Assembly: GCA_050916095.1 (NCBI GenBank)
Contig: CP050901.1
Span: 1,655,474-1,719,473 of the forward strand
Direction: 5' to 3'
DNA: 64,000 nt
From: Rhizobacter sp.
GTDB lineage: Bacteria; Pseudomonadota; Gammaproteobacteria; Burkholderiales; Burkholderiaceae_C
The notes beneath the pieces are model-generated. The model searched no databases. It was not told where the DNA came from and was given only the letters and a program-made list of their open reading frames with translations. The position numbers were made by a program, and so were the translations under genes. This document shows, in pieces, positions 6,375 through 39,428 of this stretch (position 1 is the first letter of the stretch; each line of letters starts with the position of its first letter).

Positions 6375-6455
6375 AGGGTTAAAAAGAAGAGTGGAAGAAA
6401 AACATGTGGTGCTCCACGGGTCAGTTCAATGCGTGGTTGCCCAAGACGAAACGCC

Positions 6456-7046: not shown

Positions 7047-7162
7047 AAAAGTTCAGAAAAACAGTGCTGGCGGATGGCTGGCAGGAGCGTCGTTGCAAAA
7101 CGCATGTGAAGTGATGAGGCTGCGGCCTGCCGATAAAGGGGAGGGCGGCAGGTCGTGGTTAT

Positions 7163-12927: not shown

Positions 12928-14241
12928 ATGAATGCTGGTGAAGAGGCTTCGCCAGACCGCCTCGGCGAGGTGTCGCTGCAAAGTGTGGTGAGCGCATTGC
13001 AAGCGCGTGGTGACCGCTGCTGTGCGCCCGTGGTCTCACTGCTTCCTGCCAGTCGGGCGGGTTCCCGTCGCCGTCGCCTGTGGGAGTTGAACGGTCATGC
13101 CCACTGCCCGGTGGTCGGCCTGTGCCTGCCTGTGAGTCTGGTTCGACGCTTGGTGACCAAAGCTCTGGGCCTCGCGGACGAAGACGACTATGTGTTGCAC
13201 TGTGACGCTGTCGCGGCGGCGCAGCACCGCACCTTGATCGCCGAGGCCTTGCAGCGTGAACTGGAACGGCGCCATGCGCCCCAGGTGCGATCCGTCGCCG
13301 CCCTCAAAACCCAGGATGACTTGCGGTTGTGGTGGCAAACCCAGCGCTACGAACCCGGCATTGCGGGGGCGTTGTGGGCAATTCTTACCCACCCCCGCTG
13401 CACCCCTGGCCTGGAGCGCCGCGTGCTGGCAGATGTTCACATGCAGCAACACGAGCTGGGACAAAACCTGCGCGCCCAGGGTGATCGGTTGATTGGCCTG
13501 CAAAAGGCCAATGTGGAACTGGTGCAAGAAAAAACCCAACTACAAAACCGGGTTGACGTAACCATGCGCCAACTCACCCAACAGCGTGAGACCCTGACTG
13601 CTGAACTCATGCGCCTGCGCGGCCAGTTGCTCGTCAAAGACGCCACCATCACCGGCCTGCAGGACGAATTGCGCGAGTTGCGCCGCGCGCAACCCGGCTT
13701 GCCCCAGCGCAAAGCACTGGCCGAGCAGGTGGCCAACCAGAATGAACAACTGCGTGATTTGCAGCGTGAATTACACCTGACCAAGCAAAAGATACCGGCC
13801 GCGCCCCGCTCCGCGACGGCTGCTGCCCCGGCAGCGCCGGTCGGTGAAACTGTCGCCGTACCCTTGCGATTTTTTGAGAACCGACCAGCAACGCCGACCG
13901 CGCTTGCAGCCCAAGCGGTGCTCTGCGTGGGCGGGCGTACCGGGGCAGTGCCTGCTTACAAACGCCTCGTGGAAAACATTGGCGCGCGTTTTCTGCACCA
14001 CGACGGCGGCGACGAGGACAACCCGCAGCGCCTCGCCGCCACGCTGGCTGCCGCCGACTTGGTGATCTGCCAAACCGGCTGCGTCAGTCACGATGCCTAC
14101 TGGCGCGTGAAAGACCATTGCAAACGAACCGGAACCCGCTGCGTCTTTGTGAACAACCCCAGTGCCAGCAGCTTGTTGCGTGCGCTGAAACAAGTGGCTT
14201 CAGGCAAGCACACAGAGTTTGCTCATGAACAGTCCAATTAA
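12928..14241 (+). CDS. DUF2325 domain protein with central coiled-coil
   Basis: The C-terminal region (LCVGGRTGAVPAYKRLVENIGARFLHHDGG...ICQTGCVSHDAYWRVKDHCKRTG) matches DUF2325. I trimmed the start to MNAGEEASP.... The upstream PRTPHPA translation is simply the heptamer DNA repeat read in frame. Confidence 0.7.
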   Translation: MNAGEEASPDRLGEVSLQSVVSALQARGDRCCAPVVSLLPASRAGSRRRRLWELNGHAHCPVVGLCLPVSLVRRLVTKALGLADEDDYVLHCDAVAAAQHRTLIAEALQRELERRHAPQVRSVAALKTQDDLRLWWQTQRYEPGIAGALWAILTHPRCTPGLERRVLADVHMQQHELGQNLRAQGDRLIGLQKANVELVQEKTQLQNRVDVTMRQLTQQRETLTAELMRLRGQLLVKDATITGLQDELRELRRAQPGLPQRKALAEQVANQNEQLRDLQRELHLTKQKIPAAPRSATAAAPAAPVGETVAVPLRFFENRPATPTALAAQAVLCVGGRTGAVPAYKRLVENIGARFLHHDGGDEDNPQRLAATLAAADLVICQTGCVSHDAYWRVKDHCKRTGTRCVFVNNPSASSLLRALKQVASGKHTEFAHEQSN

Positions 14242-14623: not shown

Positions 14624-14975
14624 GGCGAGCCATCGTGAAGTCCAGACCTTCGCGCCGGGGCCGAAACAAGCGCCAAGCCGAGCGAAGTGCCGCAGAACAC
14701 CGGCGCCTGGCTTGGCGGCGTGAGCGTTGGCGAGATGGGTTCACCGGTGCCGTGGTTGCCGGTGTTGTGGGGGCGATATTTTGGATTTTCCCGCCCTCAA
14801 TACCGGGTGGCGGTTGGGACGCTGGGCCTCTGGTGTCGTTTGTGTGGTGATGTGAGGGCCGCCAACGCCCGGGGCACAATCAATGGCTGCAAACTCATCC
14901 AGGAGCCCCCACCATGCAAGGCGACCCCCAAGTCATTACTGACCTTGCCTCTGTAATCCGTATCCCATAACCGAG

Positions 14976-15872
14976 TCACGAATTGGCTTGCATGGCCTGG
15001 GCCGCAAACCAGCTTTGCTCGAACTGCATCGGACTGACATAGGCCAGAGTCGAGTGCAGCCGGGCTTGGTTGTACCAAAGCAGCCAGGCCATGACCTCGT
15101 CTTTGGCTTGCCTCCTGGTTTCAAAGCGCTGCCCATGTAGGCGTTCTACCTTCAGTGACCCGAACAAGGTCTCGCTGCACGCATTGTCCCAACAGTTGCC
15201 CCGCCTGCTCATGGACGCCTGAATTCCGTACTCACTGAGCACGTCCCTGAAGTCTTGGCTTGCGTATTGACTGCCTCTGTCGCTGTGGAAGATCAGCCCT
15301 GCGCCTTTGTCTGGATGTCGCTTGAACCATGCCATGCGCAGCGCATCAATGACGATGTCGCGTGTCATGTCTTGCCGCAAGCTCCAGCCCACCACTTGAC
15401 GGCTGAAGAGGTCAATCACCACTGCCAGGTACAGCCAGCCCTCTTGGGTGTCGATGTAGGTGATGTCCCCCGCCCACACCTTGTCAGGCTCTTGAACGTT
15501 GAATTGCCGCTCCAGCAGGTTGGGTGCAATCGGCAAATCATGTTTGCTGTCGGTGGTGATCTTGAATCTGCGTTTGCCTTTGGCGCGAATGCCGTGCAAT
15601 TGCATGAGCTTTTGCACCCGGTCTTTGCCCACCCGGATGCCGCGTGCCAGCAGTTCTTTCCACATGCGAGGCCAGCCGTAGCTGGCCCTGACCTGGGCGT
15701 GAATTGCTTTGATGTGTACCAGCAAGGCGTCATCACTGAGGTGGCGTCGTTGCGCCGCACTGGCCCGCCGCAGGAAGTGCTCGTGATACCCGGCCACGCT
15801 GACACGCAGAACCCGGCACTGCACAGAGATTGGCCACACCCGCCGGTGGCTTTGTATGAAGGCGTACTTCAC
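14976..15872 (-). CDS. IS3-family transposase OrfB (DDE integrase core)
   Basis: 298 aa, rve/DDE domain. Overlaps OrfA by 4 bp, probably expressed as an OrfAB fusion by -1 frameshifting. Confidence 0.9.
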   Translation of the reverse strand: MKYAFIQSHRRVWPISVQCRVLRVSVAGYHEHFLRRASAAQRRHLSDDALLVHIKAIHAQVRASYGWPRMWKELLARGIRVGKDRVQKLMQLHGIRAKGKRRFKITTDSKHDLPIAPNLLERQFNVQEPDKVWAGDITYIDTQEGWLYLAVVIDLFSRQVVGWSLRQDMTRDIVIDALRMAWFKRHPDKGAGLIFHSDRGSQYASQDFRDVLSEYGIQASMSRRGNCWDNACSETLFGSLKVERLHGQRFETRRQAKDEVMAWLLWYNQARLHSTLAYVSPMQFEQSWFAAQAMQANS

Positions 15873-16168
15873 GTCGATCCCTTTGCAAAGTACGCCGTGG
15901 CCTTTTCCAGGATGTCGCGCTCCATCTTGACCCGCGCCAGCTCTGCCCTCAAGCGGCTGATCTCCATTTGTTCGCTGCTTACCTTGACCCGGCTGTCAGC
16001 GCCCTTGAGTTTGCCTTCGCGGTGCGCTTTGATCCAGTTGAACAGCGTCTGCTCAACCACCCCAAGCGTCCTGGCCGCTGCCGCCATGCTTTGGCCGCCT
16101 TCCACCAGCCGCACCGCCTCGAACTTGAACTCCTGCGTGTACCTCGCCCTTTTGGCTCTCTTCGTCAT
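15869..16168 (-). CDS. IS3-family transposase OrfA (HTH)
   Basis: 99 aa, MTKRAKRARYTQEFKFEAVRLV...ILEKATAYFAK, typical of IS3 OrfA. Confidence 0.9.
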   Translation of the reverse strand: MTKRAKRARYTQEFKFEAVRLVEGGQSMAAAARTLGVVEQTLFNWIKAHREGKLKGADSRVKVSSEQMEISRLRAELARVKMERDILEKATAYFAKGST

Positions 16169-17112
16169 TTCCGCTCTCCTTTGCTTGCGATTGAATCACT
16201 CAGCAAGGGATACGGTTTTCGGGGGCAAGGTCATTACCGCGCTGCAAGCGCAACTCAGAAACGAACTCACGGCCATCAACCAGTATTTCGTCCACTACCG
16301 CATGTTCAAACACTGGGGTTTTGAGAAGATTGCCAAGAAGGAGTACGAGGAGTCCATTGGCGAGATGAAACACGCCGATGCGTTGATGGAGCGCATCTTT
16401 GCGCTCGACGGTCTGCCCAATTTGCAAGACCTGGGCAAGTTGTTCATCGGTGAAACTCTGGTGGAAGCACTGCGTTGCGACCTCACCTCTGAGCAAGGGG
16501 CACAGCAAACCATCAAAGACGGTATTCATACCTGCGAGGCCGCCCGAGACTATGTGTCACGCGACCTGCTGCAAGGCATTTTGGAAGACACCGAAGAACA
16601 CATCGACTTCCTGGAAACCCAGCTCGATCTGGTAGCCAAGGTGGGTGAGCAGAACTACCTTCAGTCGCAGATGGGTTGACTTTTGATGGGTGGACTCAGT
16701 CGTCGAACGTCAGCTGAGGCACCTCCGATACCGTGACTTGCTCGCAGTGCTCGCCAGGGCTGCGATAGCTGTCACGGGGCCAGCACCCCGATGGTGTCCA
16801 GATCTTCAATGCTCTGCTCACGGCAGGAGTCTCCGGCCGACATTCAAAACAGTGAGTGCTCCGACGCGAAGCGTTGTCGAGCGACCATGTGTGGACCCGC
16901 CGCCATCACCCGGCGAGTCGCTTGGCCCAACGGCAACGCCGGAGAACATCAGGCCAAAAAGCCGCTTGTCCACAGTCCGGCCAAGGGTAAGCGTGGAAGC
17001 CGCAGGTGTAAGCGCGGCGCGCTCTTGTGCATCGCTTTGCCCTCGTGTGTCTTATAGAAGCAGTTTCTGCCGTGACAGGCGGGTTAACGATGGCCGTCAG
17101 CTTGGGCGCGGA

Positions 17113-19620: not shown

Positions 19621-19862
19621 GGACCCTGGGTCAATGGTCTGCTGTGTGAGCTGTACCCACAGGTACGACACACAGTGCCACATGCGCGTGCAACGCAGGC
19701 AAGTTGTACCCCTTTGCACAAACGGGATTGGTGTCCCGTGTCCCTTGTGATTCCTACTCGCTGCGGCGTTTGGGATGGACAGAAACACTTACCGATTTTT
19801 TGGCACCACGTTTTCATTTTTGGTTTTCTTGTTTTTGCTCCGCTGTTTTCAAGAGGTACCCC

Positions 19863-20729
19863 ATGCGCAACCTGAACCACGATTTCAAGAACCTTGCCCG
19901 TCGCAACCGAGATGGGTCGTTTGCGACCCAGCATGACCGAGAGGTCATGCTGACCTTGGTCGCGAATCAATTGCACGAAGGGGGCTTCCGGCATCTACGG
20001 GCCACGGGGGTGCGCTCCAAGCATGTGGAGCATTTGGTGAACCGCTGGCATGAAGAAGGCATCAGCCCCGGCACCTTCAAGAACCGGATGAGCGCTTTGC
20101 GTTGGTTGGCCGAGAAGATCGGCAAACAAAACATCGTGGCCCGTGAGAATGCGGCCTATGGCATTGCGGATCGGCGCCACGTGACGAATGAATCCAAGGC
20201 CCAGTTGTTGGAAATCGCACGCCTTGATGTGGTGACCGATCCGTACACGGTGTTGTCGCTGAGGCTGCAAGAAGCCTTTGGTCTGCGGCGGGAGGAAAGC
20301 ATCAAGCTGCAGCCCGTTTGGGCCGATCGTGGCGATGTGTTGCGACTCAAGGCCAGTTGGACCAAAGGCGGCAAGGAGCGGGAAGTTCCGATCGTCACTG
20401 ATGTACAGCGCCTAGCGTTGAACGATGCCAAACAGTTGGCGGGTTCAGCGTCCTTGATCCCTGAAGGCATGTCCTACCGCGACCAACTCAACCGCTTCAA
20501 GGCGCAAGCGGCCAAGGCGGGCATCAACCGGGTGCATGGGCTGCGGCATCAATACGCGCAGCGGCGGTATCAACAGCTCACCGGATGGAAGGCTCCCGCA
20601 GCGGGTGGGCCAACTTCAAAGCAACTCAGTGCGGAGCAGAAGGCGTTGGACCGGCAAGCACGCCTTGTTGTCTCGCGTGAGCTGGGTCATGAGCGCGAGC
20701 AAATAACTTCGGTTTATTTAGGCCGCTGA
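19863..20729 (+). CDS. tyrosine recombinase / phage-type integrase family protein
   Basis: C-terminal HGLRHQYAQRR ... LGHEREQITSVYLGR (H-x-x-R and catalytic Tyr). Start trimmed to MRNLNHDFKNLA. Confidence 0.7.
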   Translation: MRNLNHDFKNLARRNRDGSFATQHDREVMLTLVANQLHEGGFRHLRATGVRSKHVEHLVNRWHEEGISPGTFKNRMSALRWLAEKIGKQNIVARENAAYGIADRRHVTNESKAQLLEIARLDVVTDPYTVLSLRLQEAFGLRREESIKLQPVWADRGDVLRLKASWTKGGKEREVPIVTDVQRLALNDAKQLAGSASLIPEGMSYRDQLNRFKAQAAKAGINRVHGLRHQYAQRRYQQLTGWKAPAAGGPTSKQLSAEQKALDRQARLVVSRELGHEREQITSVYLGR

Positions 20730-20763: not shown

Positions 20764-21135
20764 ATGAACACGCTGGACCTGGTTCAAGCCGCACACCTGC
20801 TAAAGGTGCATCCAAAGACCTTGGAGCGTCTGGCACGCAGTGGTGCGGTTCCGGCCTGCAAGGTGGGACGCGCCTGGGTCTTTGTCGACGACTTGCTTCT
20901 TGAAATGCTGGTGTCAAAATCGACCTCGCGTGTGTCCGTGGTCGACTTACAGGAGAACTCTGAATGTCGCTCTACAGACGCAAGGACTCACCATTTTGGT
21001 GGGTCAAACTCCCGCTCATTCGCGGCGAGTCGAAGCCTTTACAGCAAAGCACTGGGACTGCCGATAAGCGGCAGGCGCAGCAGGTCCATGACCAGCTCGC
21101 CGCCGCCCGATGGGAGCAAGAACGGCTTGGTGTGA
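20764..21135 (+). CDS. AlpA/Xis-like helix-turn-helix excisionase-family protein (3' extent uncertain)
   Basis: MNTLDLVQAAHLLKVHPKTLERLARSGAVPACKVGRAWVFVDDLLLEML is a classic phage regulatory HTH. The ORF as drawn overlaps the int start by about 170 bp. Confidence 0.5.
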   Translation: MNTLDLVQAAHLLKVHPKTLERLARSGAVPACKVGRAWVFVDDLLLEMLVSKSTSRVSVVDLQENSECRSTDARTHHFGGSNSRSFAASRSLYSKALGLPISGRRSRSMTSSPPPDGSKNGLV

Positions 21136-21998
21136 AGGCCCGGCACACCTGGGAAGAGGCGGTACTGCGCTGGCTCTTGGAAACGAAGCACAAGGCCACG
21201 CACGAAGATGACAAGGCAAAGCTTCGCTGGCTGGATTCTTACCTTGGAGGAAAGTACCTCGACGAGATCGACCGAACGCTGATTGACCGGATCAAGTTTG
21301 ACCGCGAAAACGTCTCTTCGCACTCAACAACAAACCGCTACTTGGCTTTGGTGAGAGCGATTCTCAAACGTGCTTGCAACGAGTGGGAATGGCTGGAACG
21401 GGTGCCCAAGTTCAAGTTGTTCAAGGAAACCGAAGGCCGGGTTCGTTCATTGACACCGCAGGAATTTCAGACGCTGTTGAATGAACTGCCGGAGCACTTG
21501 TTCGACATGGCGGTGTTCGCAGTGGCAACCGGGCTCAGGCAAGCCAACGTGAAGGGCTTGCAGTGGTCACAGGTGGACTTGGAACGACAACATGCCTGGA
21601 TTCCTGGAAGCCAGCACAAGAATGGCAAGCCGCATTCGGTGCCTTTGAACGACATGGCCTTAACTGTGTTGGGCAGGCAACTGGGCAAGCACCCGAGTTG
21701 TGTGTTCACTTACCAGGGTCAAGCCATCGAGCAAGTCTCCACGCGGGCTTGGCGGCGGGCGCTGGAGCGGGCAGGGATTGCGGACTTTCGGTGGCACGAT
21801 TTGCGGCACACGTTTGCGACATGGCACCGGCAGGCCGGAACACCCACCCATGAGCTACAGCGGCTCGGTGGTTGGAAAACCGGCGTGATGGTGGAACGTT
21901 ACGCCCATGTCGCACCCGAGGCGTTGCAAAGTGCGGCCAGCCGGTTGGATGGGTTTGGTGGCTACGATTTGGCTACGCCACAAAGGACAACGGCTTAG
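20964..21998 (+). CDS. int: tyrosine-type site-specific integrase (phage/island integrase adjacent to tRNA)
   Basis: 344 aa with R...HDLRHTF...Y catalytic signature (WHDLRHTFATWHRQAGT ... VERYAHV). Ends 29 bp from the 3' end of tRNA-Asn. Confidence 0.85.
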   Translation: MSLYRRKDSPFWWVKLPLIRGESKPLQQSTGTADKRQAQQVHDQLAAARWEQERLGVKARHTWEEAVLRWLLETKHKATHEDDKAKLRWLDSYLGGKYLDEIDRTLIDRIKFDRENVSSHSTTNRYLALVRAILKRACNEWEWLERVPKFKLFKETEGRVRSLTPQEFQTLLNELPEHLFDMAVFAVATGLRQANVKGLQWSQVDLERQHAWIPGSQHKNGKPHSVPLNDMALTVLGRQLGKHPSCVFTYQGQAIEQVSTRAWRRALERAGIADFRWHDLRHTFATWHRQAGTPTHELQRLGGWKTGVMVERYAHVAPEALQSAASRLDGFGGYDLATPQRTTA

Positions 21999-24617: not shown

Positions 24618-25337
24618 TCACGCCGTGGACAGCGTCACCCACAAGGATTCAAACGCGGCATGAAACTGCCTGAGCAAGCCTGGGTCGTTGCTGAGTACCA
24701 GGTTCTCTTCGTTGTGTTCGCAGGCGCTGCGCGTCCAGTTGTAGCTGCCGTTGAGCAGCCAGCGGCGGTCGAAGAGGGCGTATTTGTGGTGCATGTGGGC
24801 GGGCGTGAAGTCAACCCGAACGTTGATGCCCGCAGCGCGCAGCCTGTCAATGTCGCTGCCAGTATCAAAAGCCTTGTCATTGTCGGTGATCAAACGCACC
24901 ACCACGCCGCGGCGGTGGGCTGCCAGAACCTCCTGGCTGATGCGGTCGTCCGAGAGCGTGAAAACACAAATGTCCACGCACTCACGGCTGCTGCGTAATT
25001 GGCCCAGGATGGCGTTGAGGCAATCGGCTCCAGGACTGAAATAGGCCTGCGCACGGTGGCTGCCGCCAGCCGTGCGAGAGACATCCAGCGCGCGCATCAC
25101 GCCCTCCAGCCAGCGCACCAGGGCTTGGGGTTCGGCTGATTCCAGCGTGCCAAGTTGTTGGCGCACCAACTCAAACGCCCCGTTGCGCAGTTGGCGCAGC
25201 CCTTCTTCTGGCAGCTGGGCATCACGCAGCGTTTGGGTGAGTTGGCGTTTTTCTTCGTCGCTGAGGCGGGCGTCTTGCAAGCTGTCTTGCAATTGCCGGC
25301 GCAAACTATGTAGCACCTCTTGGGCGGGGGCGGACAT
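24618..25337 (-). CDS. phospholipase D-family (Nuc-like HKD) nuclease
   Basis: HMHHKYALFDRRWLLNGSYNWTRSA is an HxK(x4)D(x6)GSxN motif. Start ATG lies 1 nt after the TGA stop of the upstream giant gene, indicating translational coupling. Confidence 0.75.
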   Translation of the reverse strand: MSAPAQEVLHSLRRQLQDSLQDARLSDEEKRQLTQTLRDAQLPEEGLRQLRNGAFELVRQQLGTLESAEPQALVRWLEGVMRALDVSRTAGGSHRAQAYFSPGADCLNAILGQLRSSRECVDICVFTLSDDRISQEVLAAHRRGVVVRLITDNDKAFDTGSDIDRLRAAGINVRVDFTPAHMHHKYALFDRRWLLNGSYNWTRSACEHNEENLVLSNDPGLLRQFHAAFESLWVTLSTA

Positions 25338-25338
25338 A

Positions 25339-28300
25339 TCAGCTTCCTTTGCCTTTGGGTGCGGTTTGGCGGGACCGTACGTCTTCCAGTTGTTTGGCCA
25401 CACGCTCCACTTCGTTGTGAATGGAATGGTCGAGGTTGAGGCGGTTTTCTGTGGCCGCAATCAAAGGCATCAGGATTTTTCGGTAGGTGACTGCTATCTC
25501 CAGCATCGCCTCGGCCAGGCGCACGCCTTCTGACTCTGTTGGTTTGGGCACTGCGGTCTGCGGCGGTTTGAGGCCATCCACCGCACGTGCCACGTCGAGC
25601 AAGGTGGTGGCGATGCGGGTGCTGCCGTCGGTGTCGCTGCCGCCGAGTTTGCGTTGGCGCACGAACTCTTCGCAAATGGCCTGCCAGCGCTGGGCTTCAT
25701 CGGGCGTGGGTGTGCCCAGCAACTGCGCCAGCTTGAGCAGGTTTTCTTCTGCGCCGGTGGTAAGGGTTTGCGCCTCGCCCCGGTAGTGGTCGCGCAGCAG
25801 CGCGTCCAACTCGTCGTCGCGCATCTGCGGGTTGATCTGCGCTGCGAGTTTGGTCATGTTGCGGTAGCTGCCTTGCAGCTTGAACGGCGGCTCGGTGCGG
25901 TAGTCGTCTTTTTGAGCGGCGGACTCGATGTAATTCAGATTGACCTTGAGCAGCAGGTCCCGGGCGCGGAACAGGCGCTTGAAGAGTTGTGTGAGTTCTT
26001 CGAGCTCAGCAGCGCCGTAGGGATGAGTGAACTGGCTGTCTGCCACCTCCTGGCCTTGCGCACGTTGCACGAGCAGGTGCACGTCTTTCGGGTCGCGTGA
26101 CGACAGCGGCAGCAGCACAGGGTTGGCGGTGAGGCTGTTCTCCAGGTAGGACAGCGCGAAAAGCGCTTCGCGGCCCGACAGCACATCGCCGAGGTTGTAG
26201 ATGTCGGCCCGGTTGGCCAGCATGTCGGGAATCTTGAACACATCACCCGACTCGGTGTAGGGGTTGCCCGCCATCACCACCGCAAAACGTTTGCCGCGCA
26301 GGTCGTAGCTGCGCGGCTCGCCATTCCACACGCCTTCTATGCGGCGTGTGCCGTCAGCCAAGGCGATGAACTTTTGCAAGAACTCGGGGTGGGTGTGCTG
26401 AATGTCGTCCAGGTAGAGCATCACATTGCTGCCCATGGCCAGGCCGAGGTTGAGTTTTTCCAGCTCTTGTTTGGCCGCACTGTGTTCGGCCGACGCCGGA
26501 TCAATCGAGACCACATCGTGGCCCAGCGCCGGGCAGTTGATGCGTACAAAAACCATGCCCAAACGGTCGGCCACATACTCCATCAAGGTGGTTTTGCCAT
26601 AGCCGGGCGGGGAGATCAGCAGCAGCAGCCCCATGCGGTCAGTGCGGGATGCATCACCTGCCGCACCCATTTGTTTGGCCAGGTTGTCGCCGATCAGGGG
26701 CAGGTAGACCTCGTCGATCAAGCGGTTGCGGACAAAGGTGGACAGCGGCTTGGCCTGGAACTGGTGCAGGCGCAATCGTTTCTTTTCTTGGCTGATGAGC
26801 TCGTGGCGCAGACGCTGTAGCGACTCGAAGGCCGGCAATACCTGGTTCTGATGGTGCAAAAAGCGCTGCCAAAAATCATTGAGATTGAGCCTGAGCTGGC
26901 CTTGCTGTAGACGCGGATGTTCGCTCAACAAACCGTCAACCTGTATTTCGAGTGTGGCGTTGATGCGTTGCCTCGGCGTTTGCAGACATAGCACTGTGGC
27001 GGCTTCGTCCGCCCAGCGCCGGTTGTCATGGTCTTGCGTGTGGCTGGCCGCATAGGCTCGCGTCCAGTCGCGCGCCAAACGCCAGCGCTCGGCGGGGCTA
27101 CTTGCGGCGAGGTCCCGTTGCCAATCGGCCCAGCGGCCCCGTTGCTCCAGCTCGCGCCGCAAGCTGCTGGCCAAATCGTCGGCGGGGCCAGACACCACCC
27201 AGCTCGCGGTCGAGCCATCCATGCTGGCCAATTGCCGCACCAGGTAGGCGGCCGCCTGGGCGGCGCGGGTGTCGTTCAGCGCCTTGTCGCGTTCATTCGG
27301 TGCTTCATCCCCGTGCATGAACTCGCTGGCAAAACGTTGCAAAGCCAGGGCGGTGTCGCCTTCCAGAGTGATCAGCGCTTGCTGCGATGAAAACAGTTGC
27401 TGCATTTGCAGCGCGGCGCGGGCGCGGCGTTGCAATGCCTCGCAGGCATCGGCCTTCAAGCCTTGAGTCGCGTAGAGCATGGCCCAGGCCCGCTCCACCG
27501 GACCGAAGGCCAGCAAACCCGCACCGTCTTGCATGCGCACCAGGGCAGTCAGGATGCGCGTCGCATCTTCGTCGTGCACACCTTTTTGATAGCCCTCTTG
27601 GTAGCGCGGAGCCGCCAGGGTACGCACCAACTCGATGACAGGTGTGGCTCCGGTGCTGACTTCATCGGCCCTGCCCACCGCCGCAACCAGATCGGCCCAG
27701 GGCAAGGTATGTTGGCCTTGCAGAACCGCTTGCATCAGGCAACCGGCAAGGTATTCGGCGCGGCTGATATCGGCGGTCTCAGAGGCCAGGCTTTGTTCCC
27801 AATAAGCCTTCAGTGCGTCCAGGCGCGCATCGTTGACTGGCGCCATGTAGTCGGTGCCCGTGATCTGAAACACCGGGCCTTGTTGGCTGGGCAACAGGCT
27901 CAGGTCCAGGGCCTGGCGCTGGATGGTGAAAGCATGGCGCCCGAAACGCAGGGTGTTGCCGTCGGCAGCGACCAGATCGCCTTTGTCGCGGACCATGCGC
28001 AAGGCCTGGTCGCGGGCCGTCTTCAATCGGGTGGAAATGTCATCGGCCTGGACCGCCGCGCCCAGGCTGCGCAGGTCGTCCATCAGCTGGCGCAGCTTGG
28101 CCAGCAACGGGTCGCCTGCGAAGTAGCCGTGGATCTGGCCCACCTCTGCGAAGCCCGAGACCCGGCGCGGGATGCCGTCCAGAATGCGGCCTGCTGCCTC
28201 GGCCACGGCCTGCGCGCGACGCTGCCGCGCTTCCACCAGGCTTTGCCGGCGTGCTGACAGCGCATCCACCACGGCTTCGCGTTTGTTGGCTACATCGGTG

Positions 28301-30564
28301 ATGAACACATCGTGTTCGGCGAAGCGGCCTTCGAGTTCTTCTAGCTGGGCCAACAAACGAGTCAGGGCCTCGTCGCATTTTTCCGGGGTGTCGGCAAACT
28401 CCAGCGCGTTTTCCACCGCCTGGCCGAAGAGTTTGAACTGCGCGCCGAACTCAGCGGCAGACTCAGAAGCGCCCAAGTTTTTGCGCCGACCCCGTGCTTC
28501 GGCACGTTGCCGGTTGATCTCGCCGTAGAGCGTGGAAATGCGGTCGAGGATGGCGGTGCGCACCACCGCATCACCTCCGGGCAGGGTGCCGAGCTGTTCG
28601 GTCAGCAGGTCCAGTCCCAGGGCTTGTGCGTCCAGTTGGGTGAGCAGTTGCGTCAGGGCTGGACTGGTTTGGGCTTGCGCCAGGTCAGCGGCGCTTTTGA
28701 TCAAGGCCTGCTGGTGGCCGTCAAAGGCGTGTGGGTCGGCCAGAAAGGCCATGGCGCGGCCGCCCACTTGTTGCTGCTGGTCTTGCAGCACATCATCCAT
28801 GGCCTCAATGGCGGCGAGGTCGGCATAACGCAGTTCTTTGAGCGGCTGCAAGCGACCGCGCTGCTGCCGCAGCCTGCCCAGTGCCGCGACGAAGTCATCG
28901 GGTTTGCGCCACAAGGTGCTGGCAATGTCGGTCAGCAGGGTATGTTGCTCGCCCTCAAACTGCTGCAAGGCGCGGGCCGTGTCGCGGCGAATGCTGTCGA
29001 CTTTTTCAAACTCGGTCAGGGTCTGGCGTGCACCCTCCACGATGCCATTCAAGTCATCGGCCAAGCCCTGTGTTTCAGGGGCATCCAACCAGAAATAGGC
29101 GTCGCTGATGCGTGTGCACTGGCGAATCAAGTCTTCGTAAGCGGTGCGGGTGGGCACTTGTTCGCGCACCGCGCGGGTGATGCCCATCAGGTCGGACACG
29201 CCGCGCACCAGTTCGGCATTGCCGACTTTGGCGAAAAAACCGGTGCCGCGTGGCAGCGCGGCGGCATGGTCTTCACTGGCGAAGGGCGTTTGCCACAACT
29301 GCATCTGGTGCACGCGGGTGGGCTCGTTGCCATCAGAGAGGAAAACCAAAATGCGCCCGTCGGGAAACCGCGCGTAACCATGGGCCACGATGGGCGCAGC
29401 CAGGGTTTTGTTGATCAGGTTGTAGGCAAAGAGCACATAGTGGCCGCCACCGGGTTGGTAGAAGACATAGAGCACCTCTTCGCCGTGTGGTGAGCGAATC
29501 AACCGCTTGAAACGCAAGCCGCTGCTCAAGTCTGCTGGCAGGTCAAATCGTTTGTAGTCGCCAGATTGCAAGTACATGCCGCCCGGAAAAATAATGCCGT
29601 GGTCTTCGGGCAGCTGCACGCAGGACACGCCTATGGCATCGATGCGCTCAACCTTTTGCGTTCGGGTGTTGAACACCAGGTAGCGGACGGTGCTTTCGCG
29701 GTAGGGCTTGATGCGCAGCAGAATCAGCAGGCCCAAGCGTGCCCAGGAGAACTCTGCATCCACCAGGGCCTGGTGTTTGTCTTCCACCGGTTCGCTGTAA
29801 ATGCCCAGTCCAGTTTCGGTGTTGTTCTCAATTTTGACGGTGAGGTCGCCGCCCATGGTTTCCACAAACACGGTGTCGAGCACATTGATGTGCGGGTGTT
29901 TGCCGCCAACGTGGTCCTCCCGTGTGGCTACTGTCCACTCGAAATCGTGGGTGGCGGGCAGGGCGATGTCGCGCTCACCACGGTTGTCCAGGTAACGGAT
30001 GCTGCCGTCGCGTTCAATGCTCCATCGGAACACCCTGACATCGTGCAACTGTTGGCCAATCTGGAAGGCCGCCAACAGTTTGTCTTGCGTGACGCGCAAC
30101 TGGATCAATGAGGCTTGTTTGTAATAGGCGTAGAGCTCGCGGAAATCGGCCACAAAACGCGTGTCGTCCAGGAAGGTGCCGGCTGTGGCAACCGCTTCCA
30201 GTTCGTCCGCCCCGTCGTGCACAGCCAATCGGTAAAGCGCAAACACGTCAGCAATGGCGGTTTCTTTGCGCAGGCCGATGAACACGTTGTAGCCCAGCAG
30301 TACCAGGTCACCGATGCGCACCATGTCGCGGGCCACACAATTGTTTTCGGTGCGTGCGCGCGTGCGCAGCAGCAGACTTTGTTCTGAGCGCCCAAACTCA
30401 GTGAGCCGCGCCTCATTGAGTTGCTGGATTTTGGCCAGCAGGCTGTCACCTTGGGTTTGCAGGCGTTTTTTCAGCAGCTCGTAGCTGCCACCTTCGGACA
30501 CCAAGCGCTCCACCGCGTCTTGTGCGGGTGCCGTGGCCGAGGTAGATGATGGGGCGTCAGACAT
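25339..30564 (-). CDS. giant (1741-aa) AAA+ ATPase-domain protein of unknown function
   Basis: Uninterrupted 5.2-kb ORF. C-terminal P-loop NTPase: Walker A ISPPGYGKTTLMEY, Walker B VMLYLDDIQ, AGNP sensor-like motif (AAA_5/MoxR/McrB-like). The N-terminal ~1150 aa has long helical/coiled-coil stretches and no family I can name. Confidence 0.8.
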   Translation of the reverse strand: MSDAPSSTSATAPAQDAVERLVSEGGSYELLKKRLQTQGDSLLAKIQQLNEARLTEFGRSEQSLLLRTRARTENNCVARDMVRIGDLVLLGYNVFIGLRKETAIADVFALYRLAVHDGADELEAVATAGTFLDDTRFVADFRELYAYYKQASLIQLRVTQDKLLAAFQIGQQLHDVRVFRWSIERDGSIRYLDNRGERDIALPATHDFEWTVATREDHVGGKHPHINVLDTVFVETMGGDLTVKIENNTETGLGIYSEPVEDKHQALVDAEFSWARLGLLILLRIKPYRESTVRYLVFNTRTQKVERIDAIGVSCVQLPEDHGIIFPGGMYLQSGDYKRFDLPADLSSGLRFKRLIRSPHGEEVLYVFYQPGGGHYVLFAYNLINKTLAAPIVAHGYARFPDGRILVFLSDGNEPTRVHQMQLWQTPFASEDHAAALPRGTGFFAKVGNAELVRGVSDLMGITRAVREQVPTRTAYEDLIRQCTRISDAYFWLDAPETQGLADDLNGIVEGARQTLTEFEKVDSIRRDTARALQQFEGEQHTLLTDIASTLWRKPDDFVAALGRLRQQRGRLQPLKELRYADLAAIEAMDDVLQDQQQQVGGRAMAFLADPHAFDGHQQALIKSAADLAQAQTSPALTQLLTQLDAQALGLDLLTEQLGTLPGGDAVVRTAILDRISTLYGEINRQRAEARGRRKNLGASESAAEFGAQFKLFGQAVENALEFADTPEKCDEALTRLLAQLEELEGRFAEHDVFITDVANKREAVVDALSARRQSLVEARQRRAQAVAEAAGRILDGIPRRVSGFAEVGQIHGYFAGDPLLAKLRQLMDDLRSLGAAVQADDISTRLKTARDQALRMVRDKGDLVAADGNTLRFGRHAFTIQRQALDLSLLPSQQGPVFQITGTDYMAPVNDARLDALKAYWEQSLASETADISRAEYLAGCLMQAVLQGQHTLPWADLVAAVGRADEVSTGATPVIELVRTLAAPRYQEGYQKGVHDEDATRILTALVRMQDGAGLLAFGPVERAWAMLYATQGLKADACEALQRRARAALQMQQLFSSQQALITLEGDTALALQRFASEFMHGDEAPNERDKALNDTRAAQAAAYLVRQLASMDGSTASWVVSGPADDLASSLRRELEQRGRWADWQRDLAASSPAERWRLARDWTRAYAASHTQDHDNRRWADEAATVLCLQTPRQRINATLEIQVDGLLSEHPRLQQGQLRLNLNDFWQRFLHHQNQVLPAFESLQRLRHELISQEKKRLRLHQFQAKPLSTFVRNRLIDEVYLPLIGDNLAKQMGAAGDASRTDRMGLLLLISPPGYGKTTLMEYVADRLGMVFVRINCPALGHDVVSIDPASAEHSAAKQELEKLNLGLAMGSNVMLYLDDIQHTHPEFLQKFIALADGTRRIEGVWNGEPRSYDLRGKRFAVVMAGNPYTESGDVFKIPDMLANRADIYNLGDVLSGREALFALSYLENSLTANPVLLPLSSRDPKDVHLLVQRAQGQEVADSQFTHPYGAAELEELTQLFKRLFRARDLLLKVNLNYIESAAQKDDYRTEPPFKLQGSYRNMTKLAAQINPQMRDDELDALLRDHYRGEAQTLTTGAEENLLKLAQLLGTPTPDEAQRWQAICEEFVRQRKLGGSDTDGSTRIATTLLDVARAVDGLKPPQTAVPKPTESEGVRLAEAMLEIAVTYRKILMPLIAATENRLNLDHSIHNEVERVAKQLEDVRSRQTAPKGKGS

Positions 30565-30645: not shown

Positions 30646-30894
30646 TTAAAGGCTGTGTTGTGCACGCAAATCGGCCACCGCCTTGCGCATGTCATCGCTC
30701 AAATCAGACGGCGTCAGTTTGGCGATGATGCTGCGCAGGATGCGCTTTTCGTTGTCGTCCACCGCGCCGTCTCGCTGGGCAATGGCGACAATTTTCTTCA
30801 GCTCTGCCACCTCCAGCACACCGTCGTTGGAAAAACACTGGATGGAACGGAAGGCCATCTCTAAGTAGTCGCGGGATTCAGCCATGTTGAACAT
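30646..30894 (-). CDS. small TerB-like (tellurite-resistance TerB / DjlA-N-like) domain protein
   Basis: 82 aa with duplicated DG(x5)E pattern (SNDGVLEVAELKKIVAIAQRDGAVDDNEKRIL). Sits between the flotillin and the giant ATPase gene. Confidence 0.5.
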   Translation of the reverse strand: MFNMAESRDYLEMAFRSIQCFSNDGVLEVAELKKIVAIAQRDGAVDDNEKRILRSIIAKLTPSDLSDDMRKAVADLRAQHSL

Positions 30895-33126: not shown

Positions 33127-33774
33127 TCAAAGCAATGCATCCGGTGACGGTCGAACCAAATAATGACGAGTGGTTTCGTTGTAGGCCACGATTTGCGCTT
33201 TGTCGCCCTTGACCAGGGTTTGAGGCGCTTGTGTCCAGACCCGGATGTGAACGTTGGTGCCCTGCTGTATCACCGCAGCGCGGCCAAAACGATCATCCAC
33301 ACGCTGGCTCAATACGACGCAGGTTTGTCCCACCAGGCCGGCATTGCCAACGGCGTGGTGGACGAAGAAGAGCCCTCGCATGGGACGAATCAACAGGGCC
33401 GTCAGTGGAATCGATGCCGCCAGGCTTAGCAGCAAGATGACGGTGCCGCTGACCCAAAAAATGAAGCCGCTGCCAAGGCTGGCCAAGACCCATTGGCCCG
33501 CCAGGCAACACAAGGTCCACGACAGCAGCACCAAGATGCTGACCACGATGGAAAACGGCACACCGTGCAAGCCCATGGCCACCGCGTAACCGGCGAGGGT
33601 GGACAGCTCGCCGGGGTCGCCGTCGGCCTGCAACTCCACTTCCAGGTCGAGACCGGTGGATTCGAAATCCACAAACCCCACCAAGGCCAGCAGCCAGTAC
33701 ACCAGCACCACCAGCAGCAGTGCGGTGAAGATGGCAGTGGGGTAACTCAATGCGGCACCGATAAAACGGTCCAT
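33127..33774 (-). CDS. yqiJ: NfeD-like membrane protein (YqiJ/DUF1449) with C-terminal OB-fold
   Basis: 215 aa, multi-TM N-terminus and soluble C-terminus. Canonical upstream partner of flotillin. Confidence 0.7.
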   Translation of the reverse strand: MDRFIGAALSYPTAIFTALLLVVLVYWLLALVGFVDFESTGLDLEVELQADGDPGELSTLAGYAVAMGLHGVPFSIVVSILVLLSWTLCCLAGQWVLASLGSGFIFWVSGTVILLLSLAASIPLTALLIRPMRGLFFVHHAVGNAGLVGQTCVVLSQRVDDRFGRAAVIQQGTNVHIRVWTQAPQTLVKGDKAQIVAYNETTRHYLVRPSPDALL

Positions 33775-33829: not shown

Positions 33830-34165
33830 TTATCGGTGTGTGATGCTTTGCTGCGCGAAGCGGATCAGTTCCTGGGTCACGCGTTCTTTGATGGTTAGTT
33901 TGTCGTCTGGCGGTAACCCGTAACGTTGGGCGAGGACCTCATAGTCAGCCGTGGTCAACGATACGGTGAGCCTGGGGCGCTTGGGCCGGGTGGGCGCAGA
34001 CAACTGCAGCAGCGCCCGGATTTGGTCTGAAGTGGACAGGTTGTTGTGAAACGCAGCCGTGCGCACCGCTTGCAGCACGGTTTCTTCCACATCAAAGGCC
34101 ACCTGGACTGCACGCAGCGCGTCGTCTGACCCACTCCAGCGCGCCGGCTTGCGTTGCATGGTCAT
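33830..34165 (-). CDS. hypothetical protein
   Basis: 111-aa ORF with 4-bp overlap to the upstream PspA-family gene. Confidence 0.4.
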   Translation of the reverse strand: MTMQRKPARWSGSDDALRAVQVAFDVEETVLQAVRTAAFHNNLSTSDQIRALLQLSAPTRPKRPRLTVSLTTADYEVLAQRYGLPPDDKLTIKERVTQELIRFAQQSITHR

Positions 34166-34872
34166 GTGGGATTCTGCGACTCGTTTTGACGTCTCGCACG
34201 AATGCGATCCATCACGGCTTGCTGGCGCTGTGCGTTGTCGCCTATGCCCGCCTTCGCGAGTTTTTCGGTGAGCGCTGCATCACCGAGGTCTTTGTTCAGT
34301 TGCTCGGCGGCTGTCATGCGGTCGGCCAGGGTTTCATGGCGCTGCTTGATGCGTTCCAACGATTCGCGGGCACTCACCAAACGTGAGCCGCCGTGGTCGA
34401 TGTTGTCCGAGATGGAGCGCGTCGCCCGGTAGACGCTCTCGGTGGTTTTGGCGATGCCCAGTTCTCGTTCGTGTTCGCGGATGCGTGCCTCGGCGGTTTT
34501 GATCAGGTCTTTCAAACGCGACACCTGCAGCGAGCAGGCCGCGTGCGCGCGGCTTTGCGCTTGCAGTGCCAAATCCAGCGCGCCCACTTTGCTGGCCACT
34601 TCTTCGGCCAGTTGGTCTTCATGTTTGTTCAGCGCCTCGACAGCCAGGGTTTCATAGCGCTGGATCTCGTTCTGTAATTTTTCGATTTCACGGGCGCTTT
34701 GCATTTCGTGCGCCATGACACCAGCGAGTTCATGCTTGGCATCGGAGACGGATCTTTTGGCATCCAGAATTTCTTGCTCGTAAATCGCGCTGGCGTTGGC
34801 GTCGACCACGCTCTCGCCGATGTCGCGCATGCTGCTGCGCATAAGGGTGATGACTTTTTTTATCACGGACAT
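34162..34872 (-). CDS. PspA/IM30 family protein (YjfJ-like)
   Basis: Coiled-coil PspA pattern. Start trimmed to MSVIKKVITLMRSSMRDIGESVVDANASAIYEQEILDAKR. Confidence 0.75.
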   Translation of the reverse strand: MSVIKKVITLMRSSMRDIGESVVDANASAIYEQEILDAKRSVSDAKHELAGVMAHEMQSAREIEKLQNEIQRYETLAVEALNKHEDQLAEEVASKVGALDLALQAQSRAHAACSLQVSRLKDLIKTAEARIREHERELGIAKTTESVYRATRSISDNIDHGGSRLVSARESLERIKQRHETLADRMTAAEQLNKDLGDAALTEKLAKAGIGDNAQRQQAVMDRIRARRQNESQNPT

Positions 34873-34900: not shown

Positions 34901-35317
34901 TCATTGCAAAAACTCCGACAGCGCGTCCAACGCATCCAGCGCGTTGTCGCTGAGTATGGACACGTCATGGGCGACGTCCTGAACCTTGGCATCACGCGCC
35001 AGCGCACCAAACAAGACGAAGCGCTTGCCGACGCGGCCAAAGGAGGACAGCGGCACCGAGGGATTCAGGTCGAGCAAAGTTTCCAGTAATTCGCCTCGGC
35101 GTTCAGGCAGTACTTCATCGTCCGACCAGAGGTAACACAGGCACAGAATTTGGGCCTCAGAACTGGTGAGGTAAATGGGCAACTCTTGCCGCCCCTCAAT
35201 GCTGATCTGCACCACAGGGACGTCGCCCGGTATCGGCTGCAGATCGACAGCGACGCCGCCCATGGCCTCGCCTATCAGCACGTCCAAACCCTCCAGCAAC
35301 TCGTGCAGTGTTTTCAT
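34901..35317 (-). CDS. DUF2170 (YjfI-like) protein
   Basis: Start trimmed to the Met preceded by the strong RBS GGGAGG (MKTLHELLEGLDVLIGEA...). YjfI/YjfJ pairing as in E. coli. Confidence 0.6.
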   Translation of the reverse strand: MKTLHELLEGLDVLIGEAMGGVAVDLQPIPGDVPVVQISIEGRQELPIYLTSSEAQILCLCYLWSDDEVLPERRGELLETLLDLNPSVPLSSFGRVGKRFVLFGALARDAKVQDVAHDVSILSDNALDALDALSEFLQ

Positions 35318-35374
35318 ATCCTCCCTTGATCGGACTCTCGTTGGCGGAGCCCATGGGCGGCAGAATACGTGTTC

Positions 35375-35389
35375 TGACATAACATGTCA
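35375..35389. promoter_or_regulatory. palindrome TGACATAACATGTCA upstream of the DUF2170-...-PLD operon (candidate operator)
   Basis: 6-bp arms (TGACAT/ATGTCA) with a 3-bp spacer, about 60 bp upstream of the first gene's start. Confidence 0.3.
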
Positions 35390-35465
35390 ACCGCTTTTTA
35401 TTGGGCGGCTTCAGGCCACGGGTGTCGAGGGATAAATGACTGTTGGCTCCTCTAGCTGTGTCGAT

Positions 35466-37165: not shown

Positions 37166-38093
37166 CAGCCACTAACCAATGAACAGGCTCGGTCGACATT
37201 TCGTAGACATCATGGTTCTGCCTCCGTGGCTTTGAACACCCCTGGCCATTGAAGCTCTATCGAGACTCCATCTGTTCCGAATATCGTTGGGTGGTCCAAA
37301 TGTCTATATCCCAGAAGTCTTTAACGATCAGCGCGTGATTGGCGTCGAAATCAATTGCCCAATGGTAGTTCTTGACAGGCTGTTCGGGGCCGCTGAACCC
37401 GATCCGAACACAGCGTCCAACTACCTTCCATTCGTTGCATCCACGCCAGAACGTTGCGGCGTTGGTAGCATCTGGTAGCGGCAAGGACTCGTTGAACAGC
37501 CGATTGAACGTATCGACAAACTGCCGAGCTCTTGACTCGACAACTTGATCGACTGTCCAGATGTATTCGGGGGTGCCGTTCATCGCGCTACCAGCAACCG
37601 CCGCTGCATAAAGCACGACTGACTCTCGCAGTGCTGTCAATACGACCGGATCACGCGATAAAGCGGCGAGGGTCACCAAAGAGAAATCGTTGGAGTTGAC
37701 AGCACACAGGTAAGCGGCGTCCGTTATTTTTGGGATGTTCCACGCGGGAATCGTCTTCTGAAGGGCGAGTGACAACGAATCTTCCCCCCCGCTTAACAAA
37801 CAGTCCCCATCGGATGACGGTCCAAAGATGCCTGACTCGATGATTTGTTTGAGGCGCTTGTAGCCCTCTACGGCAAAAACATTTGGTTCCAGGTGCCTCG
37901 GAACGCGTTGAAGCGCTCGCATAAGACGGAAGTACTCTGTCAGCTGCTCGTCCTCAGCGTAATAGCCCTCAATGGGAACATTTGCCGGGGCAATTGCCAA
38001 CGCAGAAGCGGTCTCTTTGGCGCAGCAATGACCTTGCCCCCGAAAACCGTATCCCTTGCTGAGTGATTCAATCGCAAGCAAAGGAGAGCGGAA

Positions 38094-38393
38094 ATGACGA
38101 AGAGAGCCAAAAGGGCGAGGTACACGCAGGAGTTCAAGTTCGAGGCGGTGCGGCTGGTGGAAGGCGGGCAAAGCATGGCGGCAGCGGCCAGGACGCTTGG
38201 GGTGGTTGAGCAGACGCTGTTCAACTGGATCAAAGCGCACCGCGAAGGCAAACTCAAGGGCGCTGACAGCCGGGTCAAGGTAAGCAGCGAACAAATGGAG
38301 ATCAGCCGCTTGAGGGCAGAGCTGGCGCGGGTCAAGATGGAGCGCGACATCCTGGAAAAGGCCACGGCGTACTTTGCAAAGGGATCGACGTGA
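38094..38393 (+). CDS. IS3-family transposase OrfA
   Basis: 99 aa, identical to 15869-16168. Confidence 0.9.
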   Translation: MTKRAKRARYTQEFKFEAVRLVEGGQSMAAAARTLGVVEQTLFNWIKAHREGKLKGADSRVKVSSEQMEISRLRAELARVKMERDILEKATAYFAKGST

Positions 38394-39286
38394 AGTACGC
38401 CTTCATACAAAGCCACCGGCGGGTGTGGCCAATCTCTGTGCAGTGCCGGGTTCTGCGTGTCAGCGTGGCCGGGTATCACGAGCACTTCCTGCGGCGGGCC
38501 AGTGCGGCGCAACGACGCCACCTCAGTGATGACGCCTTGCTGGTACACATCAAAGCAATTCACGCCCAGGTCAGGGCCAGCTACGGCTGGCCTCGCATGT
38601 GGAAAGAACTGCTGGCACGCGGCATCCGGGTGGGCAAAGACCGGGTGCAAAAGCTCATGCAATTGCACGGCATTCGCGCCAAAGGCAAACGCAGATTCAA
38701 GATCACCACCGACAGCAAACATGATTTGCCGATTGCACCCAACCTGCTGGAGCGGCAATTCAACGTTCAAGAGCCTGACAAGGTGTGGGCGGGGGACATC
38801 ACCTACATCGACACCCAAGAGGGCTGGCTGTACCTGGCAGTGGTGATTGACCTCTTCAGCCGTCAAGTGGTGGGCTGGAGCTTGCGGCAAGACATGACAC
38901 GCGACATCGTCATTGATGCGCTGCGCATGGCATGGTTCAAGCGACATCCAGACAAAGGCGCAGGGCTGATCTTCCACAGCGACAGAGGCAGTCAATACGC
39001 AAGCCAAGACTTCAGGGACGTGCTCAGTGAGTACGGAATTCAGGCGTCCATGAGCAGGCGGGGCAACTGTTGGGACAATGCGTGCAGCGAGACCTTGTTC
39101 GGGTCACTGAAGGTAGAACGCCTACATGGGCAGCGCTTTGAAACCAGGCGGCAAGCCAAAGACGAGGTCATGGCCTGGCTGCTTTGGTACAACCAAGCCC
39201 GGCTGCACTCGACTCTGGCCTATGTCAGTCCGATGCAGTTCGAGCAAAGCTGGTTTGCGGCCCAGGCCATGCAAGCCAATTCGTGA
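38390..39286 (+). CDS. IS3-family transposase OrfB (DDE)
   Basis: 298 aa, identical to 14976-15872. Confidence 0.9.
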   Translation: MKYAFIQSHRRVWPISVQCRVLRVSVAGYHEHFLRRASAAQRRHLSDDALLVHIKAIHAQVRASYGWPRMWKELLARGIRVGKDRVQKLMQLHGIRAKGKRRFKITTDSKHDLPIAPNLLERQFNVQEPDKVWAGDITYIDTQEGWLYLAVVIDLFSRQVVGWSLRQDMTRDIVIDALRMAWFKRHPDKGAGLIFHSDRGSQYASQDFRDVLSEYGIQASMSRRGNCWDNACSETLFGSLKVERLHGQRFETRRQAKDEVMAWLLWYNQARLHSTLAYVSPMQFEQSWFAAQAMQANS

Positions 39287-39428
39287 CTCGGTTATGGGAT
39301 ACGGATTACAGAGGCAAGGTCACAAAGTAGCTCGTCCCGTTCGTGGTGTTTCATCGCTTCGCGATAAAACTCGTCGAGAGCAAGTAGCAGGACTCGGTTA
39401 TCTACGATTCGAGCGTGAGTGGTCATGA

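Follow-up and report, generated by a model that had tools for sequence, protein, structure and literature searches.

The window analysed here, a stretch of 64,000 nucleotides from Rhizobacter sp. (contig CP050901.1), encodes at positions 25339-30564 of its minus strand a giant ATPase, read as one uninterrupted open reading frame (ORF) of 1,741 codons with an ATG start. It is near certain that this protein belongs to the DUF3686-DUF7902-AAA+ family and that its gene belongs to a class of operons encoding flotillin-like proteins; it is a full-length, collinear ortholog of BacE (PA3728/PA14_16190) of Pseudomonas aeruginosa. The best-supported reading of the data presented below is that the giant is the cytoplasmic ATPase subunit of an inner-membrane module composed of a flotillin-like protein, a YqiJ-like protein and, in many genomes, the ESCRT-III relative PspA. 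In this module it would probably act as a motor, using ATP to drive a machine that responds to membrane stress. The association of such ATPases with this operon has already been published, and the giant is thus a member of a known, biochemically unstudied family.

Family, domains and catalytic module of the giant ATPase

The sequence-only reading that had drawn attention to this gene could name no family for the region preceding the ATPase. Pfam does provide one, as do the named homologs at NCBI. Residues 43-491 match DUF3686 (PF12458) with an E-value of 2.6e-193 and 643 bits (cut-off 25), covering positions 3-448 of the 448-position model, and residues 612-696 match DUF7902 (PF25472) with an E-value of 3e-22 and 79 bits against a gathering score of 26. 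The N-terminal region is therefore catalogued in Pfam, yet functionally uncharacterised, and a literature search on DUF3686 returned no papers. Neither the protein on its own nor a profile of 67 sequences retrieved more than P-loop-level matches from the PDB, and no part has a solved relative detectable by sequence.

A search of 5.8 billion proteins at E≤1e-5 recovered more than 4,000 full-length homologs of the giant in Proteobacteria, Bacteroidota and Planctomycetota, which means that the earlier observation was not due to chance. The best 120, from Hydrogenophaga, Variovorax, Ideonella and their relatives, are 67-82% identical to the query over 98-100% of its length, a distribution that points to a Comamonadaceae-like betaproteobacterium as the origin of the window. 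Homologs from Beta- and Gammaproteobacteria are full-length and collinear (45-82% identity), and those from Bacteroidota and Planctomycetota are 26-35% identical. In the Pseudomonas branch (about 47% identity), one cluster from P. aeruginosa comprises 3,222 sequences. When residues 1-720 were used in an exhaustive HMMER search, 883 clusters were returned at the 50% identity level. Since this region almost always lies at the N-terminus of full-length members, which range from 1,590 to 2,036 amino acids (aa), the family has essentially one fixed architecture. A search seeded by a 26%-identical member found proteins of Flavobacterium, Sphingobacterium and Planctomycetota carrying the same Pfam set.

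Two shorter proteins of 1,040-1,048 aa, P0430 and P0431, contain DUF3686 and DUF7902 only and have no AAA+ module. The gene for P0430 (locus L083, 8001-11123) lies beside an integrase gene and has neighbours encoding Por_Secre_tail domains, outside a flotillin context.

The domain structure was modelled with AlphaFold2 in two overlapping parts, using the 67-sequence alignment, which spans several phyla. The mean predicted local distance difference test (pLDDT) score was 84.6 for residues 1-1200 and 86.1 for residues 1101-1741. The first model starts with a helix (14-57), followed by a beta-rich region (63-425), long helices (430-861), a small beta domain (871-909) and a helical region (935-1193). 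In the second model, a small beta element and a long helix lead to the AAA+ core, an alpha/beta fold with a lid, after which comes a helical C-terminal extension. The possible beta-rich N-terminal segment and the long helical stretches anticipated by the sequence-only reading are both present. According to the DSSP assignment, the beta-rich domain has approximately 28-29 strands, mostly with pLDDT above 90, and this number suggests a propeller of about seven blades. Its Foldseek matches are propeller proteins (E 1e-7 to 1e-4). The best matches are propeller-plus-solenoid proteins, namely IFT-A, a nucleoporin and the clathrin heavy chain, but they align with very low TM-scores (0.06-0.13 over the query), and the likeness therefore holds at the level of domains only. 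The helical bundles look like the rods of talin and spectrin. A scan for transmembrane segments predicted none in the giant.

The recognisable P-loop ATPase occupies approximately the last 460 residues, at the C-terminal end to which it had been assigned from the letters alone, and its Walker A, Walker B and AGNP motifs were likewise correctly placed (Table 1). Across the 67 sequences GYGKTT (1321-1326), with the Walker A lysine and threonine, the DD pair of Walker B (1386-1387) and N1434 are invariant; several arginines are also invariant or nearly so. Identity to the distant phyla reaches 71% in the AAA core, compared with 42% in the propeller, 41% in the helical segment 701-865 and 15% in the C-terminal tail. 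These invariant motifs and the high identity of the core indicate that the most constrained part of the protein is a predicted active ATPase.

Assignment of this module to a class rests on its structure. Its nearest structural relatives are the MoxR ATPases CbbQ and NorQ, in agreement with the earlier proposal of a MoxR-like module, and in a structure-class comparison it falls with the modules of MoxR, dynein and midasin (the AAA_5 or helix-2-insert clade). The Pfam models AAA and AAA_5 are slightly above their cut-offs (27.7 bits versus 22 for AAA_5), whereas AAA_3, the model of MoxR proper, scores 13.5 bits, below its cut-off of 27. NCBIfam gave P-loop-level matches only, such as RuvB with 17 bits versus a cut-off of 282-299. 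The giant also differs from the characterised MoxR-family proteins CbbQ, NorQ and RavA in its size, these being approximately 270-500 aa long, in its Walker B pair, which is DD instead of DE, and in the absence of the VWA-domain partner with which they act: Pfam detected no VWA domain in any ORF of the operon.

Gene neighbourhood in related genomes

Neighbouring genes were located by tblastn in 80 related loci from reference genomes. A flotillin-like gene lies directly upstream of the giant in 75 of the 80 loci and a YqiJ-like gene is present in 71. PspA (57 loci) and DUF2170 (53) are less frequent, and a PLD-superfamily gene follows the giant in 38. The gene for a 111-aa protein was found in 28 loci, mainly of Betaproteobacteria, and that for an 82-aa protein in 21 (47-78% identity), where its position varies: on either side of the giant or ahead of the YqiJ-like gene. 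The constant partner is thus the pair of flotillin and YqiJ genes rather than PspA. Of the five loci in which no flotillin match was obtained, three are cut by contig ends; the other two (L026 and L061) truly have no flotillin gene, and their upstream ORFs match none of the operon proteins.

The gene order is retained in the Flavobacterium locus, which carries genes for CesT_Tir, PspA and proteins of 212, 686 and 586 aa, followed by the giant, and in another distant locus the order is 212-aa gene, 647-aa gene, giant. Taken together, the counts in the 80 loci and these two distant loci define a constant core of YqiJ-like protein, flotillin and giant, to which the CesT-like/PspA pair and the PLD protein are frequent additions. 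The CesT/Tir-like DUF2170 protein and PspA extend the core in most Proteobacteria and in some Bacteroidota, and PLD follows in approximately half of the loci. In the Flavobacterium locus (L081) the additional 586-aa protein, a coiled-coil protein, is encoded between flotillin and the giant (6228-7988). In the other distant locus (L082) a TelA (toxic-anion resistance) gene (13001-14221) comes right after the giant.

The two membrane proteins of the core were identified by profile-profile comparison with hhalign. For the family of the 713-aa protein the homolog is the E. coli flotillin YqiK (probability 99.9%, E 9e-34), and for that of the 215-aa protein it is E. coli YqiJ (probability 92.4%, E 5e-7). 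Pfam matches are weak in both cases: the flotillin-like protein has weak Flot and Band_7 matches, and among the orthologs there were two weak matches for 26 flotillin-like proteins and one for 22 YqiJ-like proteins. A PDB search with the profile of the flotillin-like family found nothing. The DUF2170 protein matches the NCBIfam BacA model with an E-value of 2e-10, under the cut-off of that model.

The closest studied relative of the operon is the 'biofilm-associated cluster' of P. aeruginosa, bacABCDEF (PA3732-PA3727), a single six-gene operon (PMC10948618) with the order DUF2170, PspA, YqiJ-like, flotillin-like, giant and PLD. The Rhizobacter protein was compared by tblastn with the copy of the giant in P. 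paraeruginosa (98% identity to its P. aeruginosa counterpart): the two share 47% identity over residues 6-1729. BacE and BacF were assigned to the operon by reverse-transcription PCR and by their accumulation alongside BacB-D in a bacA mutant (PMC10948618). A transposon mutant of bacA in strain PA14 shows defects in biofilm formation, in the secretion of rhamnolipids and in virulence, and an earlier deletion of pa3731 (bacB) is cited in the same article as having similar ones together with reduced swarming (PMC10948618). Elsewhere PA3728 is listed as a plain 'ATPase' recurrently mutated in cystic-fibrosis isolates (PMC8190622), PA3728-PA3732 are reported as a co-upregulated cluster of unknown function (PMC13637947) and PA14_16190 is one of the proteins most strongly repressed by RsmA (PMC8855297).

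At the level of comparative genomics, Ravi et al. (mSystems 2024) described an operon class of CesT/Tir-PspA, band-7/flotillin, YqiJ/YuaF, a 'beta-propeller + coiled-coil + AAA+ ATPase' and PLD, as well as abbreviated flotillin-YqiJ-AAA+ operons with a wider distribution (PMC11237479). The operon in the window has this same architecture, in which PLD is optional, and the Flavobacterium locus is its version in Bacteroidota. That study is a comparative-genomics description; the AlphaFold2 models, the placement in the MoxR clade, the additional small beta and helical domains and the partner counts are new here.

The operon in the window and its surroundings

All genes of the operon lie on the minus strand, in the order DUF2170, PspA, 111-aa protein, YqiJ-like, flotillin-like, 82-aa protein, giant ATPase and PLD (Table 1). 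Compared with the bac operon of Pseudomonas there are thus two additional small genes, for the 111-aa and 82-aa proteins, the first of which may encode a local regulator. The likely start of the DUF2170 gene is the ATG at 35317, with AAGGGAGG just before it. The PLD protein has a helical N-terminal extension of about 100 residues ahead of its single HKD domain. Its ATG is found 1 nt past the stop codon of the giant (25335-25341), which suggests that the two genes may be translationally coupled.

The promoters of the two operons also appear to differ. A sigma-54 site has been proposed for the bac operon, which is reported to be sigma-54 dependent (PMC10948618), whereas a search for a sigma-54 promoter upstream of the operon in the window gave matches at or below chance, and the one candidate found there is sigma-70-like. 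The -35 element of this near-consensus candidate (region 35362-35394) overlaps an inverted repeat, TGACATgttATGTCA.

Table 1. Position of the operon genes, of the domains and motifs of the giant ATPase and of the promoter candidate in the window
Feature	Position	Strand	Basis or remark
Sigma-70-like promoter candidate, TTGACA-17-TATTCT, 10/12 matches	35362-35390	-	Upstream of operon; consensus match only
DUF2170/CesT-Tir-like protein, BacA/YjfI-like	34901-35317	-	Pfam PF09938, E 3e-25
PspA/IM30-family protein (bacterial ESCRT-III), 236 aa from MSVIKK, BacB/YjfJ-like	34162-34872	-	Pfam PF04012, E 6e-27
111-aa protein, possibly ribbon-helix-helix	33830-34165	-	Faint FitA-like similarity, E 0.07
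YqiJ/YuaF-like membrane protein, 215 aa, about three transmembrane segments and a C-terminal soluble domain	33127-33774	-	hhalign, transmembrane scan
Flotillin-like protein, 713 aa from second ATG, one N-terminal transmembrane segment	30930-33071	-	hhalign, transmembrane scan
82-aa protein, gene between those of flotillin and giant	30646-30894	-	No family match
Giant ATPase, 1,741 aa + stop	25339-30564	-	Soluble; ortholog of P. aeruginosa BacE/PA3728
Giant: divergent beta-propeller, DUF3686 core, residues ~61-430	29275-30384	-	AlphaFold2 DSSP, Foldseek, Pfam
Giant: rod of long helical bundles, residues ~431-865	27970-29274	-	Includes DUF7902
Giant: DUF7902, residues 612-696	28477-28731	-	Pfam
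Giant: small beta domain, residues ~866-930	27775-27969	-	AlphaFold2; preceded by low-confidence linker 862-883
Giant: second all-helical domain, small beta element and long helix into ATPase, residues ~931-1270	26755-27774	-	AlphaFold2
Giant: MoxR-like AAA+ module, residues ~1271-1560	25885-26754	-	Pfam, conservation, AlphaFold2, structure comparison
Giant: Walker A, PPGYGKTTL, residues 1319-1327	26584-26610	-	
Giant: Walker B, LYLDDIQ, residues 1383-1389	26398-26418	-	
Giant: sensor-1, AGNP, residues 1432-1435	26260-26271	-	
Giant: helical C-terminal extension, residues ~1561-1741	25342-25884	-	AlphaFold2; tail weakly conserved
Single-HKD PLD-superfamily protein, 239 aa, motifs HHKYALFD and GSYNWT, BacF-like	24618-25337	-	

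Two copies of an IS3-family insertion sequence with an rve/HTH_21 transposase lie at 14940-16242 and 38020-39322. They are 1,303 nt long, 100% identical and inverted with respect to each other, and they bracket 21.8 kb comprising the whole operon, a gene for a TonB-dependent receptor, two tyrosine-recombinase genes and an NnrU gene. The bracketed segment looks like a composite transposon. The two recombinase genes, of the phage-integrase family, are adjacent on the plus strand (19704-20729 and 20964-21998), near the operon. The TonB-dependent receptor, encoded downstream of the operon, was considered as a component of the system and rejected, its gene being conserved in 1 of the 80 loci.

Function of the giant ATPase

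We propose that the giant works in the cytoplasm as an AAA+ ATPase remodelling assemblies of flotillin, of PspA or of both at the inner membrane; we give this proposal an even chance of being right. The N-terminal beta-propeller and the helical-bundle rod would form the adaptor part, docking on the cytoplasmic flotillin assembly, on the PspA polymer or on both. Motor function would fall to the C-terminal MoxR-type AAA+ module, which presumably forms a ring oligomer, and hydrolysis of ATP would remodel the flotillin/PspA lattices by assembling them, turning them over or disassembling them, under envelope stress or in biofilm growth.

Two types of known systems make such an activity plausible. 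SPFH cages work with AAA+ machines, as in the FtsH-HflK/C and m-AAA-prohibitin systems, in which, as in the operon class studied here, a membrane scaffold of the SPFH family is genetically paired with an AAA+ ATPase. The giant differs from these ATPases in being MoxR-like and not FtsH-like and in having neither a protease domain nor a transmembrane segment. In archaea and eukaryotes, turnover of ESCRT-III polymers requires an AAA+ ATPase, Vps4. The giant resembles Vps4 in being encoded beside a protein of the ESCRT-III superfamily, PspA, both in the window and in most of the related loci, and by analogy its job may be a comparable ATP-driven turnover of a polymer. The giant does not combine an N-terminal MIT domain with an AAA module of the classical clade. 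According to a 2025 review, a Vps4-like ATPase is seemingly absent from bacterial PspA systems (PMC7619361). This allows speculation that the family is the bacterial functional counterpart of Vps4, docking through its propeller and helical rod on flotillin cages and PspA polymers and recycling both in membrane repair, an extension of our proposal that is conceivable but doubtful.

Several points weigh against the proposed role as a remodeller. MoxR-family ATPases are better known as chaperones for maturation or cofactor insertion, usually acting with a VWA partner, than as disassemblases of polymers, and the operon encodes no VWA protein recognisable by Pfam. The acidic pair of Walker B is DD where DE is usual, and hydrolysis of ATP may consequently be slow. 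In the two loci that truly lack flotillin the giant occurs without this neighbour and without a YqiJ gene upstream. Among loci whose flanks are complete, about 15% have no PspA-DUF2170 pair, and PspA is therefore not an obligatory substrate. The PLD protein is nearer to Nuc-type nucleases than to cardiolipin synthases, a poor fit to a purely lipid-centred picture. Moreover, our literature search found no experiment on the giant ATPase itself for any organism.

The relationship with CbbQ and NorQ, its closest structural relatives, could instead mean that the giant is a MoxR-type assembly or maturation chaperone, which builds the flotillin-YqiJ-PspA complex or activates or loads PLD, as CbbQ, NorQ and RavA do for their clients, and disassembles no polymer. 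The close coupling of the PLD gene to that of the giant would fit this view, and Ravi et al. attribute a chaperone-like role in assembly to the AAA+, CesT/Tir and band-7 partners (PMC11237479). However, neither a VWA protein nor another typical MoxR adaptor was recognised in the operon by Pfam, just 38 of the 80 loci have PLD, and the propeller-rod extension of about 1,270 aa is unlike any characterised MoxR protein. We consider this explanation unlikely. A more structural role, in which the propeller and the alpha-helical array form a membrane-associated lattice of their own and the AAA+ module merely regulates its self-assembly, is suggested by the Foldseek matches to IFT-A, nucleoporin and clathrin heavy chain, by the resemblance of the bundles to talin and spectrin rods and by the existence of the AAA-less variants P0430 and P0431. 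It appears improbable, given that this likeness concerns single domains, that the one variant examined (P0430) lacks the operon context and that the AAA core, being the most conserved part, argues for a central ATPase activity.

The sequence-only reading had placed the giant among NTPase-driven defence or stress machines. Its MoxR-like assignment is supported, and its stress half is supported by an operon context of PspA/IM30, flotillin and YqiJ-type proteins; its defence half is not supported, so that the earlier observation was confirmed in part and its interpretation was partly supported. Large NTPases whose N-terminus looks like a sensor are indeed frequent in defence, and in an anti-phage or other conflict system PspA or flotillin would sense perturbation of the membrane while the NTPase couples this signal to a PLD-family nuclease effector. 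The PLD protein is most similar to single-HKD enzymes of the NucT, DpdK and DrmC type, and the operon lies between two identical insertion sequences, near tyrosine-recombinase genes. PADLOC-DB v2 nevertheless gave nothing specific: P-loop-level matches only for the ATPase (E≥0.005), scattered matches for PspA (E≥0.007), generic matches at superfamily level for PLD (the PLD domains of DrmC, DpdK and MkoB) and none for the flotillin, YqiJ-like, DUF2170, 111-aa and 82-aa proteins. The stable gene order over 80 loci and the wide presence in P. aeruginosa, with its cluster of 3,222 sequences, are unlike patchy defence islands. Moreover, half of the loci have no PLD, and the published phenotypes relate to biofilm, rhamnolipid and osmotic stress. 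There is accordingly little chance that the giant belongs to a conflict system.

The homologs of the giant are mostly named 'DNA repair ATPase' at NCBI and, for some, 'MoxR-like ATPase' at JGI, and Pfam describes DUF3686 as 'ATPase involved in DNA repair'. The sequence-only reading had named strong full-length similarity to a known DNA-repair ATPase as evidence against itself; such similarity therefore exists in name but not in substance. Apart from these labels, the adjoining PLD protein, which could be a nuclease, is what speaks for a literal role in DNA repair. Yet Pfam, NCBIfam and the PDB profile search detected no DNA-binding, nuclease, SMC, Rad50, RecN or helicase domain in the giant, its ATPase is of the AAA+/MoxR-like and not of the ABC/SMC type, and the RuvB match concerns the P-loop only. 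All conserved neighbours (PspA, flotillin, YqiJ and DUF2170) are membrane or envelope-stress proteins, and no publication on DUF3686 links the family to repair, none having been returned. With SbcC, Rad50 and SMC-type ATPases the giant shares the inherited name and long helical regions only; it has no ABC-type ATPase head and no DNA-related neighbours. Finding no support in domains, structure or gene context, we rejected the literal reading, which is scarcely credible. The name probably derives from a coiled-coil resemblance to SbcC/SMC-type COG categories.

Thousands of genomes, widely including those of P. aeruginosa, hold a protein of 1,600-1,800 aa under this unsupported and misleading name, and a correction of the annotation would be useful whichever mechanism holds. 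The giant is a concrete candidate for the energy source that powers remodelling of flotillin/PspA membrane scaffolds in bacteria. If it is indeed a remodeller of these scaffolds, it would offer a direct handle on membrane repair and microdomain dynamics in bacteria and would be relevant to the biofilm and virulence defects of bac mutants in P. aeruginosa. If, beyond this, the family is the counterpart of Vps4, bacterial ESCRT-III-type polymers would gain a dedicated energy source, drawn from the MoxR clade and not from the classical AAA clade.

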